From an uncultured Verrucomicrobiae bacterium (GTDB lineage: Bacteria; Verrucomicrobiota; Verrucomicrobiia; Chthoniobacterales; JAFAMB01), in contig CAWIPH010000002.1 of assembly GCA_963837955.1 (NCBI GenBank), positions 3,040,001 to 3,104,000 on the forward strand: 64,000 nt of DNA, in the 5' to 3' direction. Shown piece after piece: positions 60,001 to 64,000 of the stretch. How positions within the stretch are numbered: the stretch's first letter is position 1; every line of letters begins with the position of its first letter. The position numbers are program-made.

Positions 60001-63000
60001 TATTCAGCTGGCCAATCGTTTTGAGCAAGTCGCACTGAGCGAATGTTCTAACGATGGCAGCGACGGTGGTACCAAGCGTGAGCACATATCCACTACCACC
60101 AATGGGCCGCATGAGTGTTCTTGGCCACCTCATCCAGGTGAGTACATCGTTGGCAATCCCGCAGGCTCAATTGCGATCTGCACCCTCTCTAATAGGGAGC
60201 TGCCACAGAAGCTTATTGCTGTGGCAGGACCCGACCTAGCTATTGCTGGCCGATGCGACACGGAAAACATAGGTATTGAGAAAGTGGTACTCAATGTGTT
60301 GGCAAACTCTCGGATTCGTTGGCTCATTCTTTGTGGAGTCGAGGCACCGGGACATCGGGCCGCAGATGCTTTCCTACGATTGAAGGAGCGAGGCGTTGAT
60401 CCGAACATGCGAGTCCTGGAATCGGCTTCGTGGCGACCGATACTGAAAAACTTGACTTTGTTCGACGTGGCCAGATTTCGGGAACAGATCGAACTGGTAA
60501 ATTTGATTGGAGTAACAGCTGTCAGCAAAATCATCGAAGCTGCCAGCGAAGTTGCCAAGAAGCCCGCCCCGACACTCAGTCTCCAGACACCGGACAGCTC
60601 CAATCAAATTGCATCTCGGGTTAAACGGTTAAAGGCTGCTGCCCCGAAAACCTTGCATCTCGACAAGGCCGGATTTTTTGTTCTTCTCCCCCAAGCTGCG
60701 ACCGGTGTGATTGTGTGTGAGCACTACGAGAATAGTGGCCGCCTGGCGCACGTGATCGAAGGATCTCAGGCCGCGCTAATCGCCGCGACGGTAATAGAGC
60801 GCGGACTGTTAACGCAGCTCGATCACGCAGCTTATCTCGGCCGTGAGTTGGCGAAAGCAGAAATTGCACTGAAGACTGGCTCGCATTACGAACAAGATGC
60901 AGCCTTGGGCCTCCTGCCTTCGAAAAACAGTCAGCGTACTGAACGGTGCGAGGATTTGGACTGTTCTTGCCAAGAACCATAGCCTCCACCCCACGCCATG
61001 AAGAAAGCAATCATCACACTGGTTACGACCGCAGCGAGCTTTCTGGCTCCCTGCGTTTATTCTCAACAAGCGAACGACTCAACGGCTGGAGTTGGTCGTC
61101 ATCCGACGACAGTTAATGATCTAGCGTCTGATCCATCCACTTATTTAGGGCAAGTTTCGGTAGTTGGCGTCGTGGCGGCCATTAATAGTGGTCAAGGCTT
61201 TACTATCGTTGATAAGCGTGAATATGCAGCTTGTGGTCTTTCTTGTTTTAGCGAACCTGATACTCGAAAGATCCCGGTACGTTGGAACGGAGCTCCTCCG
61301 AAACTTGAGCAAACGGTTCGTATAACCGGAGTCCTCGAAAAATCGGATCGCGGGCTGGTCTTTTCTGCCCAGAACGTCTCGGAGGCTGCTAAGGAGTGAA
61401 AAGCCAGCAACAAGAAAGCATTCCGCATCTCAACCGGCTATTGGGGACAGCAGCCTTCGTCGCGGTCTTCGTTGGTCACGTACTTTATCTACGCTACCTG
61501 ACGAGCCCTTCGCAAAAGGATTGGGCGGACAATTTCAATCCTTGGGCCAATTTCTGGCAAAGCTATCTGTTCAGCCAAGACTATTTCGTAAGTTTTTCTT
61601 ATGCGCTGAGTGCCAGCTTTGCTGTGTGGGCTACCGCACGTTTTTTGTACTTCCGCCGACAGGCAGCGGCCGTCGGAGCGCTTGGTGGGGTTAGCCTCGT
61701 CGCGTTGCTTCCGGCAGCAGGATGCTTTCTGGTCGGTTGCTGCGGCTCGCCGATGCTACCGATCTATATTAGTCTTTTCGGCTCGAAAGCTGCTGGAATA
61801 GGCAAGCCGCTCATGGCCTTACTAACTCTAGCCTCGATTGGCGTGGGTTACCTTTACCTCCGGAGACGATCAGCGTGCAACTGCACTAATCCGGCCGGTT
61901 AGTAGTGCATGTCTCACGGGACTCTGATTCAAACGGTGGGAGCAAATCACTCAGCTGCGCAGCATGTGCGATTCTCTCCCTGCATTGGTGGACACTTCAC
62001 CGAACCGTAGGAGCAGAAGACGCAGCAATCACCCGGTTTGGGGCGTAGTAGCGTCTTACAACTGTTGCATTCGTAGAAGAATTGGCACGCGTCAGTCGGC
62101 ATCGTTTCGCGTTTAGCGAAACCGCAGACCGGGCACACGAGCACGGATTCAAGAAGAACGTTGCTCATTACCGAATTCAGTTGTGCAGAGTGGAAGGATA
62201 ACCTGCATCGGAAGTCGCTTTGCTAAGTGCAGCCGGGCTGGCTTTCTCCGGGTCAAAGGTAACACTGGCAGTTTTTTGGTCGAAATCCACCCTGGCGGTG
62301 GTCACGCCCGGCACTTTCTCGAGTGCTTTCTTAACAGTGATCGGACAAACCGCGCAGGTCATATTGTGCACGTCCAGAGTAATGGTTTGTAAGGTTCCAG
62401 CGAATAGGCTGAAAGGGAGGGCGACGCCGGCGGCGCTCAGCAGGACGAAACGGTTCATAAGCAATTTCATAGCGAATAAAATAGAGGGGCGATCCAGGGT
62501 ACGGCGATCAGACCAAAAACTAGAACCGTAACGATCCAGAACGCTAAGCGCTGGCGTTTCAACGTGCGCGGATTGGCACAGGCCGATCCGGGTAGACAGA
62601 TTCGAGGTGCCAAATAGAGACTATAAAACGCGAAGGCAACAAACAGCAGCGTTAGTCCGATGAAAATTGGCCGATAAGGTTCGAGCGCAGTTAGAGAGCT
62701 GATCCAGGCCCCGCTTACCCCGAGCGTAAGCAAAACCAGCGGACCGAGGCAGCATAGTGATGCTCCAAGTGCCGCAAATATCCCAGCCACCAGGAAGGCG
62801 TAACCGCTTCGGGTAGCAGACTTCTTCAGTTCAGAAACTGATGGTTTCATTCAGCTTTGAGCAGGAGATTTTATCGCGCAGCAGTCTGGCGTAGCTGTTT
62901 TAGTTTTCGCTCCATCGTCGTCGTCGACTTGCGGGCGAATACCCTTTGCGAAGGCTTCCTGCAAGGCAACGACCCCCCTTTCGTCGAGACTCTCATGTGC

Positions 63001-64000
63001 GACTACCGACAGCTCTTCGGCGATCTGCTCTTTCTTACATCCTGGATCTGAATCGTTAAGGTTGCCAATGAATCGGCGCTCGAAAACGTTCGCCAAGCCG
63101 GTCTCCAAGGCTTTGGCTTTTTCTTCCGGCAACGCGATCTTCGTCTGAATCCGGCGAACCAGTCTTGCGGCAATAGTCCGGGCCTCCAGCTTACTGAGGC
63201 TGTCTACTTCAGCGCCGCGGTACCAGGCATTGCGGGAAACGAAACTCTGTAGTTCGGTCTCACGACCTTCGCCGTCCAATTCCCGAGCCGTTGCCCCATT
63301 CTTTTCCACGACGGATTGAACAGCTTTGTTCCGCGACTCTCGACTGGATCCCTCACTCCCGACAACGGCTAACACTGTTCCCGAGCCGTTCAGCCAGGCC
63401 TCCATGATGATGGGCTCACCCTCCAATTCCAGCAAAATTGGCTTGGAACGGCTGCCGCAACCGATCGCCGGCGCTGCCTCACATCTCAACGGCACTTCGA
63501 ATAGACTGATGCGGTCTGCCTCGACCGCGATTTTGGTCCCTTCGCCGAAAACCGACGAGACGCCCAGCAAACTTACCAGCGCCGTTGTTACTATCGTTTG
63601 TTTCATAGGATGAATTTGTCGATGACCCATGCTACGCTCCGTACTCGGGTACGGTGTCAACGGCTATTTGATTCAGTGAGCGATTCGATGACCGGACACG
63701 GCTGATAGCCTTTACGTTTTGCGCATTGTTCGAGAGTCTTAGTCAGGACTGACTCGATCCGTTGAAGCTGGCCGAGTTTTTCCTGAACCAAGTTCAGCTT
63801 TTCCGCCGCAAGTTTTTGAACCTGCTCGCAATCGGCACTCGAGAGCTCCAGCAGCGCGCGGATATCGTCAAGCGAGAATCCTAGCTGCTGAGCACGACGG
63901 ATGAAACGCACTCTTTGCAAATCTTCAGCGCCGTAGGAGCGTGTCCCTCCATAAGGCTTCTGCGGAAGCTCGAGCAGCCCGATCCGCTGATAGTATCGGA

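Follow-up and report, generated by a model that had tools for sequence, protein, structure and literature searches.

The mer system is among the best-studied metal resistance systems. In E. coli, merTP without merA makes the cell hypersensitive to Hg(II). HMA domains bind metal at the junction of strand 1 and helix 1, and MerG, a periplasmic phenylmercury-resistance protein, has a signal peptide. According to the available text of PMC3466566, the parts list of mer comprises merR/arsR, merD, merP, merT, merC, merE, merF, merG, merH, merA, merB and TRASH, with MerG being linked to merB and organomercurials. The operon described here, from an uncultured Verrucomicrobiae bacterium, encodes a further protein, g03539 (hereafter X), between merR and merT. 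Like X, MerG is accessory to the mer system, being neither a transporter nor an enzyme, and its plasmid, pMR26 of Pseudomonas K-62, comes from the same strain as an X homologue on plasmid pMR68. However, in the available text, the describers of MerG annotated this homologue only as a 'hypothetical protein' and not as merG, which sets X apart from MerG by description. No description of the X family was found by a full-text word search of the available literature, which does not see sequences or supplements (e.g. Table S2 of the pMR68 paper).

A five-gene mer operon

The window, i.e. the whole analysed stretch of 64,000 nucleotides, holds five operon genes in the order merR - X - merT - merP - GDCCVxC gene:

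63657..64000, minus strand, cut at the window end and continuing to the window-equivalent position 64049: merR, first gene of the operon (TIGR02051, PF13411)
62851..63606, minus strand: X (g03539), 251 aa plus stop, unnamed family
62467..62850, minus strand: merT, 127 aa (PF02411, 2e-34)
62177..62470, minus strand: merP, 97 aa, signal peptide and HMA domain with CAVC (TIGR02052)
61947..62168, minus strand: GDCCVxC-domain cysteine protein, 73 aa, fifth gene of the operon (NF041374)

The genes are closely packed, with the merT ATG directly abutting the stop codon of X and an ATGA overlap joining merT and merP. MerR scores 149.7 bits on TIGR02051 (cut-off 150.85) and 1.5e-19 on PF13411; its cysteines, Cys74, Cys109 and Cys118, are spaced 35 and 9 residues apart, and the complete ORF is found at 2981-3373 of the extracted locus L001. 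MerP reaches 100.9 bits on TIGR02052, above the cut-off of 92.55. The GDCCVxC protein, a single-copy gene in this genome, scores 107.7 bits on NF041374 (cut-off 40; 2.5e-31), ends in ..CCAAE and carries no signal peptide. MerR, MerT and MerP thus stand together in one tight operon, providing the regulator, importer and periplasmic binder of a mer system. For X itself, alternative upstream starts are possible at an ATG at 63630, which fits the 259-aa database entry P0003, and at a TTG at 63660. The minus-strand order merR-X-merT-merP had been given in the genome-wide survey's note and is borne out by domain searches and ORF coordinates; MerT was also stated there to be the only one of the genome, in agreement with the single match of a genome-wide search. 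The fifth gene had been overlooked.

Upstream of merR, the hexamers ATGCTT and TAAGAT are 19 nt apart and conserved in three loci, a promoter spacing beyond the range of the sigma-70 scan, which admits spacers of 16-18 nt only. This is the MerR-type spacing, from which a response of the operon to Hg(II) is predicted. CadD is encoded immediately upstream of merR, both here and in locus L014. Nearby convergent genes, encoding an MtrA-like protein (59744-60982), a secreted 133-aa protein and a 168-aa membrane protein with Cys-Cys, were dropped from the system because none has a homologue in any of the related loci retrieved.

Sequence features and predicted fold of X

The following parts can be distinguished in X:

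63544..63606, minus strand: signal-peptide-like N-terminus, residues 1-21 (MKQTIVTTALVSLLGVSSVFG), hydrophobic, by translation
63259..63519, minus strand: HMA-like ferredoxin-fold domain, residues 30-116, pLDDT about 97 in the AF2 model
63457..63483, minus strand: C-x7-C loop (CEAAPAIGC, C42 to C50), presumed Hg(II) site
62932..63234, minus strand: four-helix domain, residues 125-225, opening with a conserved WYRG..VD.LS..EA motif
62854..62931, minus strand: disordered charged tail, residues 226-251, pLDDT 54-70
62878-62883, minus strand: vicinal Cys-Cys of the tail, C242-C243 (DCC), followed by 8 residues to the C-terminus

Translation confirms the hydrophobic signal-like start, the C..(7)..C pair and the near-terminal DCC on which the earlier claim of a mercury-handling protein had been built (residues 1-21, C42/C50 and C242-C243). 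The AF2 model (pLDDT 88.3, pTM 0.79) falls into three parts, namely the HMA-like domain, the four-helix domain and the disordered tail. DSSP assigns the beta-alpha-beta-beta-alpha-beta order of a ferredoxin-like fold to the model. In VIA-align, HMA domains made up most of the top 20 rows, aligned over their whole length with Z 6.9-8.2 and rmsd 1.8-2.7, where a Z of 7 to 8 is a 'middling' range by the tool's own note. These rows include Zn, Cu, Cd and Au binders; ZntA-N aligns over 73/73 residues (Z 8.2, rmsd 2.3) and the Hg-bound NmerA 2kt3 over 69/69 (Z 7.1, rmsd 2.1). In the model, the C-x7-C sits between strand 33-37 and helix 51-62, so that the invariant cysteines lie in the loop joining strand 1 to helix 1 and at the N-terminus of that helix. 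The GMxCxxC metal loop of HMA is not encountered there; the loop reads C-x7-C-G (CEAAPAIGCG).

By sequence, this resemblance is not picked up. Pfam gave nothing better than E 0.15 for X, with no HMA (PF00403) match at E<=1, and NCBIfam gave nothing at E<=1, which includes MerP (TIGR02052) and MerA (TIGR02053). Among 116 family members, no X domain matched HMA, the sole match being an extra domain fused to one member, and hhalign of the family alignment against the HMA alignment returned a probability of 9%. In the PDB, the family profile matched nothing beyond a chance hit (E 1.5), and a Foldseek search of the model against the PDB found nothing at E<=0.001. The four-helix domain folded alone reaches a pLDDT of 83.9; its best VIA-align rows (Z up to 7.1) are unrelated helical proteins, and no fold was assigned.

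Of the known mer proteins, MerP resembles X in that both are encoded beside merT with a signal peptide (signal-like in X), occur in fusions at the periplasmic end of MerT, and share the beta-alpha-beta-beta-alpha-beta order with two cysteines at the strand 1/helix 1 junction (for X, in the model). However, X has no HMM match to MerP/HMA (hhalign 9%), a C-x7-C-G loop instead of GMxCxxC and about 2.5 times the length, including a four-helix domain and an arm bearing Cys-Cys, and its own operon also encodes a normal MerP. The second likeness is to MerA: NmerA (2kt3) aligns with its full 69 residues, both proteins have a vicinal Cys-Cys on a flexible end, and in two natural chimeras, P0002 and P0133, the MerA tail itself is attached to an X N-domain. 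NmerA and the MerA tail, however, belong to a cytoplasmic enzyme, whereas X is putatively exported and lacks any flavoprotein portion; in X, moreover, 8 residues come after the Cys-Cys, and not every family member has this pair.

Family, gene neighbourhood and natural fusions

X is a member of a large unnamed family, for which 264 clusters were counted at 90% identity and 495 at 50%, with members in Verrucomicrobiota, Bacteroidota, Ignavibacteria, Armatimonadota, Dormibacterota and on proteobacterial plasmids. It is thus far larger than the four plasmid matches known before had hinted, whereas the statement that X belongs to no known family stands: the 116 aligned members have no Pfam family in common, NCBIfam has none, and in the ESM Atlas relatives of X occur only in clusters called 'hypothetical protein'. 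Among the 116 aligned members C42, C50, G51, G76, W128 and L137 are invariant, and the C-x7-C motif is present in 246/269 family proteins. The vicinal Cys-Cys was found in 118/180 stand-alone members at a position that varies across the family. The family-constant feature is therefore the C-x7-C-G loop and not the Cys-Cys tail; since 62/180 stand-alone members lack the arm, it cannot be essential to the core function of the family.

A hydrophobic 12-mer is present at the N-terminus of 152/165 stand-alone members with enough N-terminal sequence. In the 51 related loci described below, most stand-alone X genes start with signal or lipobox sequences, those of Bacteroidota being lipobox-like. Together with the fusion topology after the third MerT helix, this signal-like N-terminus supports X being a putatively exported protein. 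Members without signal peptide are that of L016, which adjoins MerA, the copy on a Rhodanobacter plasmid and second tandem copies (tandem duplicates are found in L025 and L037); judged by their N-termini, these may act in the cytoplasm.

For the gene neighbourhood, 51 related loci from several phyla were drawn with a 35-sequence alignment and the pattern C[PEG]AAP[EQD]IGC, covering only part of the family, and neighbours were counted with small home-made HMMs at heuristic thresholds. Under these settings, MerT or MerTP is encoded within 4 kb of X in 34/51 loci, a GDCCVxC gene in 30/51, and either of these in 46/51; regulators are of the MerR type in 12 loci and of the ArsR type in 27. In nine further loci, a long GDCCVxC neighbour resembles a MerC::GDCCVxC fusion, and two of these neighbours, tested against Pfam MerC, both scored 45 bits (cut-off 27.6). 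Homologues of X also adjoin mer genes on pMR68 and on Rhodanobacter and Fibrella plasmids, Pseudomonas sp. K-62 and Rhodanobacter denitrificans FW104-R5 being cultured hosts of such plasmid copies. The pMR68 copy, pointed out before, is recovered with 46.8% identity (86% of the query aligned) and comes immediately behind merT2 and merP2. Taken together, a tie between X and mercury transport genes across phyla is supported.

Several natural fusions were observed. MerT is followed by a Cys-Cys linker and X in P0108, P0119 and P0121, and by HMA and X in P0115, P0124, P0127 and the loci L018, L024, L026 and L028, while P0047, P0118 and L015 are of the signal-MerP-X type. In the MerT fusions, X has no signal peptide of its own and follows the third MerT helix, the place of the MerP-like domain in MerTP. 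Because of these fusions, X is placed on the side of the membrane on which MerP acts. GDCCVxC is likewise a cysteine-rich, mer-linked and largely uncharacterised protein and is fused to X in four cases, with a lipoprotein signal in L038, L040 and L060 and none in the fused copy of L037. It is nevertheless a partner and not a relative of X, having an unrelated small zinc-ribbon-like domain, mostly without signal peptide, which in the two proteins tested is joined to the cytoplasmic end of MerC.

No MerA above the cut-off is encoded in this genome (95% complete, 2 contigs), the best protein reaching 347.6 bits against 454.45. The genome's six flavoprotein disulfide reductases all lack a terminal Cys-Cys, and their identity to the real MerAs found in related loci does not exceed 33%. 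The mer cassette without mercuric reductase described in the survey's note is therefore upheld, but the note's view that X marks a reductase-independent module is not. In 12/51 loci, e.g. L027 (MerR-HMA-MerTP-X-MerA) and L016 (MerA-X), X has a MerA-like gene as a neighbour at 4 kb or less, and a relative of the same genus that shares this operon encodes an intact MerA on a different contig. In the remaining 39/51 loci no such gene is nearby, and a regulator-importer-X-GDCCVxC module without merA recurs in many of them. Of the 50 host genomes, mostly metagenome bins of unstated completeness, 13 encode MerA above the cut-off and 35 show none. X is thus not specific to reductase-less modules. A paralogue of X elsewhere in the genome (P0002), also overlooked before, carries the final 54 residues of a MerA as a fusion and matches TIGR02053 at model positions 412-465; no orthologue of this chimera was found among 40 relatives. 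P0133 is likewise an X N-domain with a MerA tail. The MerA-tail relic in P0002 suggests a recent loss of MerA rather than a design without it.

Possible roles of X

The explanation we favour, at somewhat better than an even chance, is that X serves as a periplasmic Hg(II) chaperone, either in addition to MerP or in its place, that supplies MerT or other importers and is accessory to mercury uptake. From the modelled structure, the neighbours and the fusions we infer Hg(II) binding and hand-over by X, which way the metal moves, what the arm does and a contact with MerT or MerP. X would reach the periplasm by its Sec signal, or by a lipoprotein signal in Bacteroidota. There, an HMA-like domain with the longer, invariant C-x7-C-G loop in place of the usual CxxC metal loop would bind Hg(II) as a dithiolate of C42 and C50, and the mobile Cys-Cys arm could pass it on by thiol exchange, comparable to the C-terminal Cys-Cys of MerA. 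The acceptor would be the Cys-Cys pair of the first MerT helix (MerTP or MerC elsewhere), directly or via MerP, with GDCCVxC here, and MerA where present, as the next, cytoplasmic acceptors. Against this reading stand the failure of sequence methods to link X to HMA, the members without the arm, those without signal peptide, the heuristic basis of the neighbour counts, and two further points. Given the hypersensitivity of E. coli with merTP only, import without MerA looks harmful here, leaving the net benefit of the module unexplained. Furthermore, the lipoprotein signal on three of the four X::GDCCVxC fusions puts the GDCCVxC domain, otherwise read as cytoplasmic, outside the cell.

As a chaperone, X would add an unnamed and widespread part to mer, with about 500 clusters at 50% identity in several phyla and on mercury-resistance plasmids of cultured strains. 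The model would offer an HMA-like scaffold with a new loop for metal binding and a testable route of Hg(II) delivery to MerT/MerC, especially for the Bacteroidota modules without MerP. It also bears on how mercury-cycling potential is read from metagenomes, where merT and merP often cluster in the absence of merA, for reasons not yet explained.

X might instead be a periplasmic mercury sink whose four thiols hold Hg(II) and buffer the envelope, giving resistance by sequestration with nothing passed to MerT. Two separate thiol sites per molecule, the tandem duplicates in L025 and L037 and the missing MerA (not found in this genome, near X in 39/51 loci or in 35/50 genomes) are in line with this. 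However, the many fusions tethering X to the periplasmic end of MerT/MerTP are hard to explain by a sink, an importer gene is linked to X in 34/51 loci and apparently nine more, and a stoichiometric binder is a poor defence unless abundantly made, so we regard this explanation as unlikely. The proposal of the survey's note, in which X is a dedicated part of a reductase-independent module with MerT, MerP and GDCCVxC, draws on a nearly closed genome without MerA, on the many loci with regulator, importer, X and GDCCVxC but no merA, and on MerA being above the cut-off in only 13/50 host genomes. As these genomes are mostly bins of unstated completeness, as merA directly adjoins X in 12/51 loci (e.g. 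L027 and L016), as the same-genus relative combines the same operon with an intact MerA and as the MerA-tail relic suggests a recent loss, we consider it very unlikely.

Equally improbable in our view is that X carries no mercury at all, acting either as a thiol-redox helper that keeps the cysteines of MerP/MerT reduced in the periplasm or as a chaperone for another thiophilic metal such as Cd, Cu, Ag, Au or Zn. The CadD gene that directly precedes merR, here as in L014, would fit another metal, as would the range of soft metals bound by HMA-fold proteins (the Zn, Cu, Cd and Au rows) and the ArsR/SmtB-type regulators of many loci, from which the metal is not defined by sequence. To our knowledge, though, C-x7-C is no known redox-active motif, the regulator scores at the MerR equivalog cut-off with the three-cysteine pattern kept, and the partners MerT, MerTP, MerC and MerA are Hg-specific families. 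Moreover, ArsR-type regulators are normal for Bacteroidetes mer operons according to the available text of PMC3466566.

A bolder version, which we consider quite unlikely, combines a regulator, an importer (MerT, MerTP or MerC), X and GDCCVxC in a widespread MerA-free pathway. Hg(II) would be relayed thiol to thiol from exported X across the membrane to a cytoplasmic GDCCVxC, whose ..CCAAE end would mimic the MerA tail, and would from there go either into storage or, in trans, to flavoprotein disulfide reductases that have no tail. If this were true, the chimeras of X and the MerA tail would show that Cys-Cys arms are interchangeable modules.

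Organisation of the mercury operon

Five genes lie head-to-tail on the minus strand, the second of which encodes g03539 (here called X). The features are as follows, in window numbering, which is continued where they lie beyond the window end.

63657-64049 (within the window to 64000), minus strand: merR
62851-63606, minus strand: X (g03539), translated as 251 aa
62467-62850, minus strand: merT
62177-62470, minus strand: merP
61947-62168, minus strand: fifth operon gene, 73-aa GDCCVxC-domain protein (small Cys-protein domain, NCBIfam NF041374)
64074-64104 (3398-3428 of L001, the locus of X), minus strand: promoter candidate ATGCTT-19 nt-TAAGAT
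64132-64743 (3456-4067 of L001), minus strand: CadD-family cadmium-resistance transporter gene, 82 nt upstream of merR

Gene calls and family models confirmed the order merR-X-merT-merP given in the genome-wide survey's note; the four genes stand, and the GDCCVxC gene has to be added to its list. The merT start directly abuts the X stop codon, merT and merP overlap by ATGA, and a gap of eight bases lies between merP and the GDCCVxC gene. The regulator reaches 149.7 bits against the MerR equivalog model (cut-off 150.85), and its cysteines 74, 109 and 118 show the spacing (35 and 9) known for the three Hg-binding cysteines in Tn501/Tn21 MerR. A 19-nt spacer and a TAAGxT -10 box are the hallmark of MerR-activated promoters. 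A stretch of 25 nt separates the candidate promoter from the merR ATG, and its hexamers and 19-nt spacing are kept upstream of merR in L014 (a same-genus relative) and L015 (-35 box TTGCTT), one of these two loci having a different upstream gene. The CadD gene is also found upstream of merR in L014, the closest related locus.

The GDCCVxC protein ends in ..CCAAE, and the MerA of the same-genus relative ends similarly, in ..SCCAE. A full-text literature search on the word GDCCVxC returned no paper. Opposite the operon lies a convergent three-gene set (59744-61902, plus strand). Its products are a 412-aa protein (MtrA-like plus DUF4346 pterin-binding) whose ends are Cys-rich, a secreted protein of 133 aa and a membrane protein of 168 aa that carries ..GCCGSP.. 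and a C-terminal CNC. For none of the three was a homologue found in 51 loci with X relatives, and the adjacency may therefore be due to chance.

The X family and its predicted fold

The translated X has a signal-like segment (residues 1-21), a C42-x7-C50 pair and C242-C243 in an acidic, Lys-rich tail; the single further cysteine, Cys189, is not conserved. X matched nothing in Pfam or NCBIfam, and its ESM Atlas neighbours are all labelled 'hypothetical protein'. At 90% identity, family proteins of similar length form 264 clusters; at 50% identity there are 495 representatives within E ≤ 0.001, of which 351 reach E ≤ 1e-10. Invariant in an alignment of 116 members, which share no common Pfam family, are C42, C50, G51, G76, W128 and L137. 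Of 269 family proteins, 246 contain a C-x7-C motif, usually in the form C-x-A-A-P-x-I-G-C-G, and those lacking it are mostly short and fragment-like. Full-text literature searches yielded no description of the family, and the tables of mer functions in two reviews (one of them PMC3466566) do not list X.

Motif variants of the form C-x3-x-x-[IL]-G-C-G also occur. The 610-aa metagenome protein P0123 carries a distant X-like domain (..EGLRCPAVKGIGCG..), preceded by a Cys-Cys-rich N-terminus and followed by a middle region and a canonical X domain, which shows that the family extends into a wider, more divergent fringe. Five short metagenome forms (P0104, P0110, P0185, P0191 and P0252) have in-frame internal deletions that spare the N-domain and the Cys-Cys tail; P0110 belongs to a cluster of 8 members, one of which (170 aa, on 8 contigs) is from a Chthoniobacterales bin. 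In P0200, the X N-domain is joined to the end of a GDCCVxC protein.

An AlphaFold2 model of X built from this family alignment (pLDDT 88.3, pTM 0.79) reaches a pLDDT of about 97 over residues 30-225. Residues 30-116 are modelled as a beta-alpha-beta-beta-alpha-beta domain, with C42 in the loop that follows strand 1 and C50 immediately before helix 1, residues 125-225 as four helices and the last 26 residues as disordered. When compared with 48,161 chains using VIA-align, most top rows were HMA metal-binding domains, each aligned over its whole length, such as ZntA-N (Z 8.2, rmsd 2.3, 73/73 aligned), ATP7B (Z 8.2) and the Hg-bound NmerA 2kt3 (Z 7.1, rmsd 2.1, 69/69 aligned). Foldseek also listed HMA-kind domains, none with an E-value ≤ 0.001. 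Sequence methods are blind to this likeness, with 9% probability in hhalign of the X family against HMA and no hit in a PDB profile search. Therefore, we call the N-domain HMA-like in predicted fold and position of the predicted metal site, and do not file X as an HMA family member. The four-helix domain folded alone (pLDDT 83.9) gave no informative structure match.

Neighbours, fusions and a putative role

The 51 related loci come from a pattern scan in which each species was represented by one genome and, grouped by the organism named in the record, belong to Bacteroidota (28), Verrucomicrobiota (15), Ignavibacteria and relatives (5), Chthonomonadaceae (1; presumably Armatimonadota) and Dormiibacterota (1), with one unclassified. 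NCBIfam annotation of the first 15 loci seeded small local HMMs, which were then run over all 51.

Number of loci (of 51) in which a feature lies no more than 4 kb from X
MerT or MerTP (MerT with a MerP-like domain): 34
GDCCVxC: 30
MerT/MerTP or GDCCVxC: 46
MerR-type regulator: 12
ArsR-type regulator: 27
MerA-like gene: 12
None of these: 3

A three-gene module of ArsR, X and a long GDCCVxC protein recurs in nine loci of Bacteroidota and Ignavibacteria, with X as its sole component predicted to be exported. Both long proteins tested are MerC (Pfam 45 bits, cut-off 27.6) with GDCCVxC fused at its C-terminus, and two others show the same membrane segment by eye. ArsR-type regulators are described as the norm in Bacteroidetes mer operons (PMC3466566). 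Plasmid homologues also sit beside mer genes: the order is merT2-merP2-X on pMR68, as the survey had seen, and X-arsR-merTP on a Fibrella plasmid; on a Rhodanobacter plasmid merR is divergent from X, with merTPCA 2.5 kb further on. Supplementary table aside, the pMR68 paper gives cluster 2 as merT2-merP2 only, with the next gene unnamed.

At least 18 residues precede strand 1 in 165 of 180 stand-alone members, with a hydrophobic 12-mer there in 152 of the 165. Most stand-alone copies in the 51 loci have putative signal peptides, lipobox-like in many Bacteroidota copies. Natural fusions point to the topology: X follows MerT in P0108, P0119 and P0121, MerT-HMA in P0115, P0124, P0127 and loci L018, L024, L026 and L028, and signal-MerP in P0047, P0118 and L015. 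These fused domains have no signal peptide of their own, and X is placed after the third MerT helix, where MerTP carries its MerP-like domain and which is presumably the periplasmic side. An apparent X-MerT and an apparent MerT-X arrangement (P0010 and P0086) look like gene-caller read-through of a stop codon and were not counted as fusions. No signal is present in L016, in the copy on the Rhodanobacter plasmid or in the second of tandem copies, so the family may include cytoplasmic members, as HMA proteins do. Tandem X genes occur in L025 (7983-9672) and L037 (7249-8867), the second L037 copy being signal-less with GDCCVxC fused on; GDCCVxC is also fused to X in L038, L040 and L060.

The vicinal Cys-Cys is frequent but movable. 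Of the 180 stand-alone members, 99 have it in the C-terminal tail, 14 just behind the signal peptide and 5 at either end of the protein, while 62 have none; it thus cannot be essential to the core function of the family. In the MerT-X fusions, which have no Cys-Cys tail, one or two pairs are located in the linker, and in L027 in an inserted loop. Nearly always the segment is predicted or expected to be flexible, a placement that agrees with a swinging dithiol arm.

From the family with its fold and invariant cysteines, and from the export signals, the neighbours and the fusions, we infer that X is a putative HMA-like periplasmic metallochaperone of the mer system. Hg(II) would be captured in the periplasm at C42/C50 and passed by arm-assisted thiol exchange, directly or via MerP, to the Cys-Cys pair of MerT, MerTP or MerC, its cytoplasmic destination being GDCCVxC or, where present, MerA. 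The main rival, that X serves purely as a periplasmic mercury sink, is made less likely by the natural fusions, which tether X to importers. MerP is the closest known analogue of the proposed chaperone and NmerA the closest in fold, but X resembles neither in sequence or motif and has an extra helical domain and the arm.

MerA and its possible remnants

The survey had read the operon as a reductase-independent mer module. Over its 5.62 Mb genome (2 contigs, 95% complete), the best match to the MerA model reached 347.6 bits (cut-off 454.45). Six flavoprotein disulfide reductases are encoded, all without a C-terminal Cys-Cys and at most 33% identical to genuine MerAs of related loci, and a genome-wide search found one MerT and one GDCCVxC gene. 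Based on these results, the observation of a missing MerA stands. As a mark of reductase-free modules, X does not hold: a MerA-like gene adjoins it in 12 of the 51 loci, and 13 of the 50 host genomes encode a MerA that exceeds the cut-off, with MerA pieces beside X in two more. The L014 genome has the same CadD-MerR-X-MerT-MerP-GDCCVxC operon and an intact 478-aa MerA on another contig. Therefore, X accompanies the uptake step, reductase present or absent. No MerA was found in 35 of the 50 genomes, which are mostly metagenome bins whose completeness is not stated. In a MerA-less cell Hg(II) import looks harmful, given that merT and merP on their own make E. coli more sensitive to Hg(II).

Outside the window, the genome encodes a 203-aa paralogue, P0002 (G000:C2:769170-769781; L002 1398-2009, plus strand), which starts with the signal and N-domain of X (51% identity with X residues 3-157) and continues in frame into the final 54 residues of a MerA (model positions 412-465), terminal Cys-Cys included. 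Over its last 160 nt it shares 82% identity with the 3' end of merA as found intact in the same-genus relative, the similarity reaching no further than the stop codon. A search of 40 relatives revealed no orthologue. Either P0002 is what merA loss has left behind, or it functions as a protein of N-domain and arm. A second X/MerA-tail chimera, P0133, is a metagenome singleton with a different junction. In L030 (Melioribacteraceae), two short ORFs (8755-8934 and 10247-10495) encode the MerA C-terminal tail only; one directly follows X, and a full merA lies upstream. Near MerR-MerTP::X, flavoprotein disulfide reductases without the C-terminal Cys-Cys are found in L024 (711-2177, minus strand), adjoining a GDCCVxC gene, and L026 (7997-9565, plus strand). 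Scoring 375 and 320 bits on the MerA model, both below the cut-off, they are candidate tail-less reductases served in trans.
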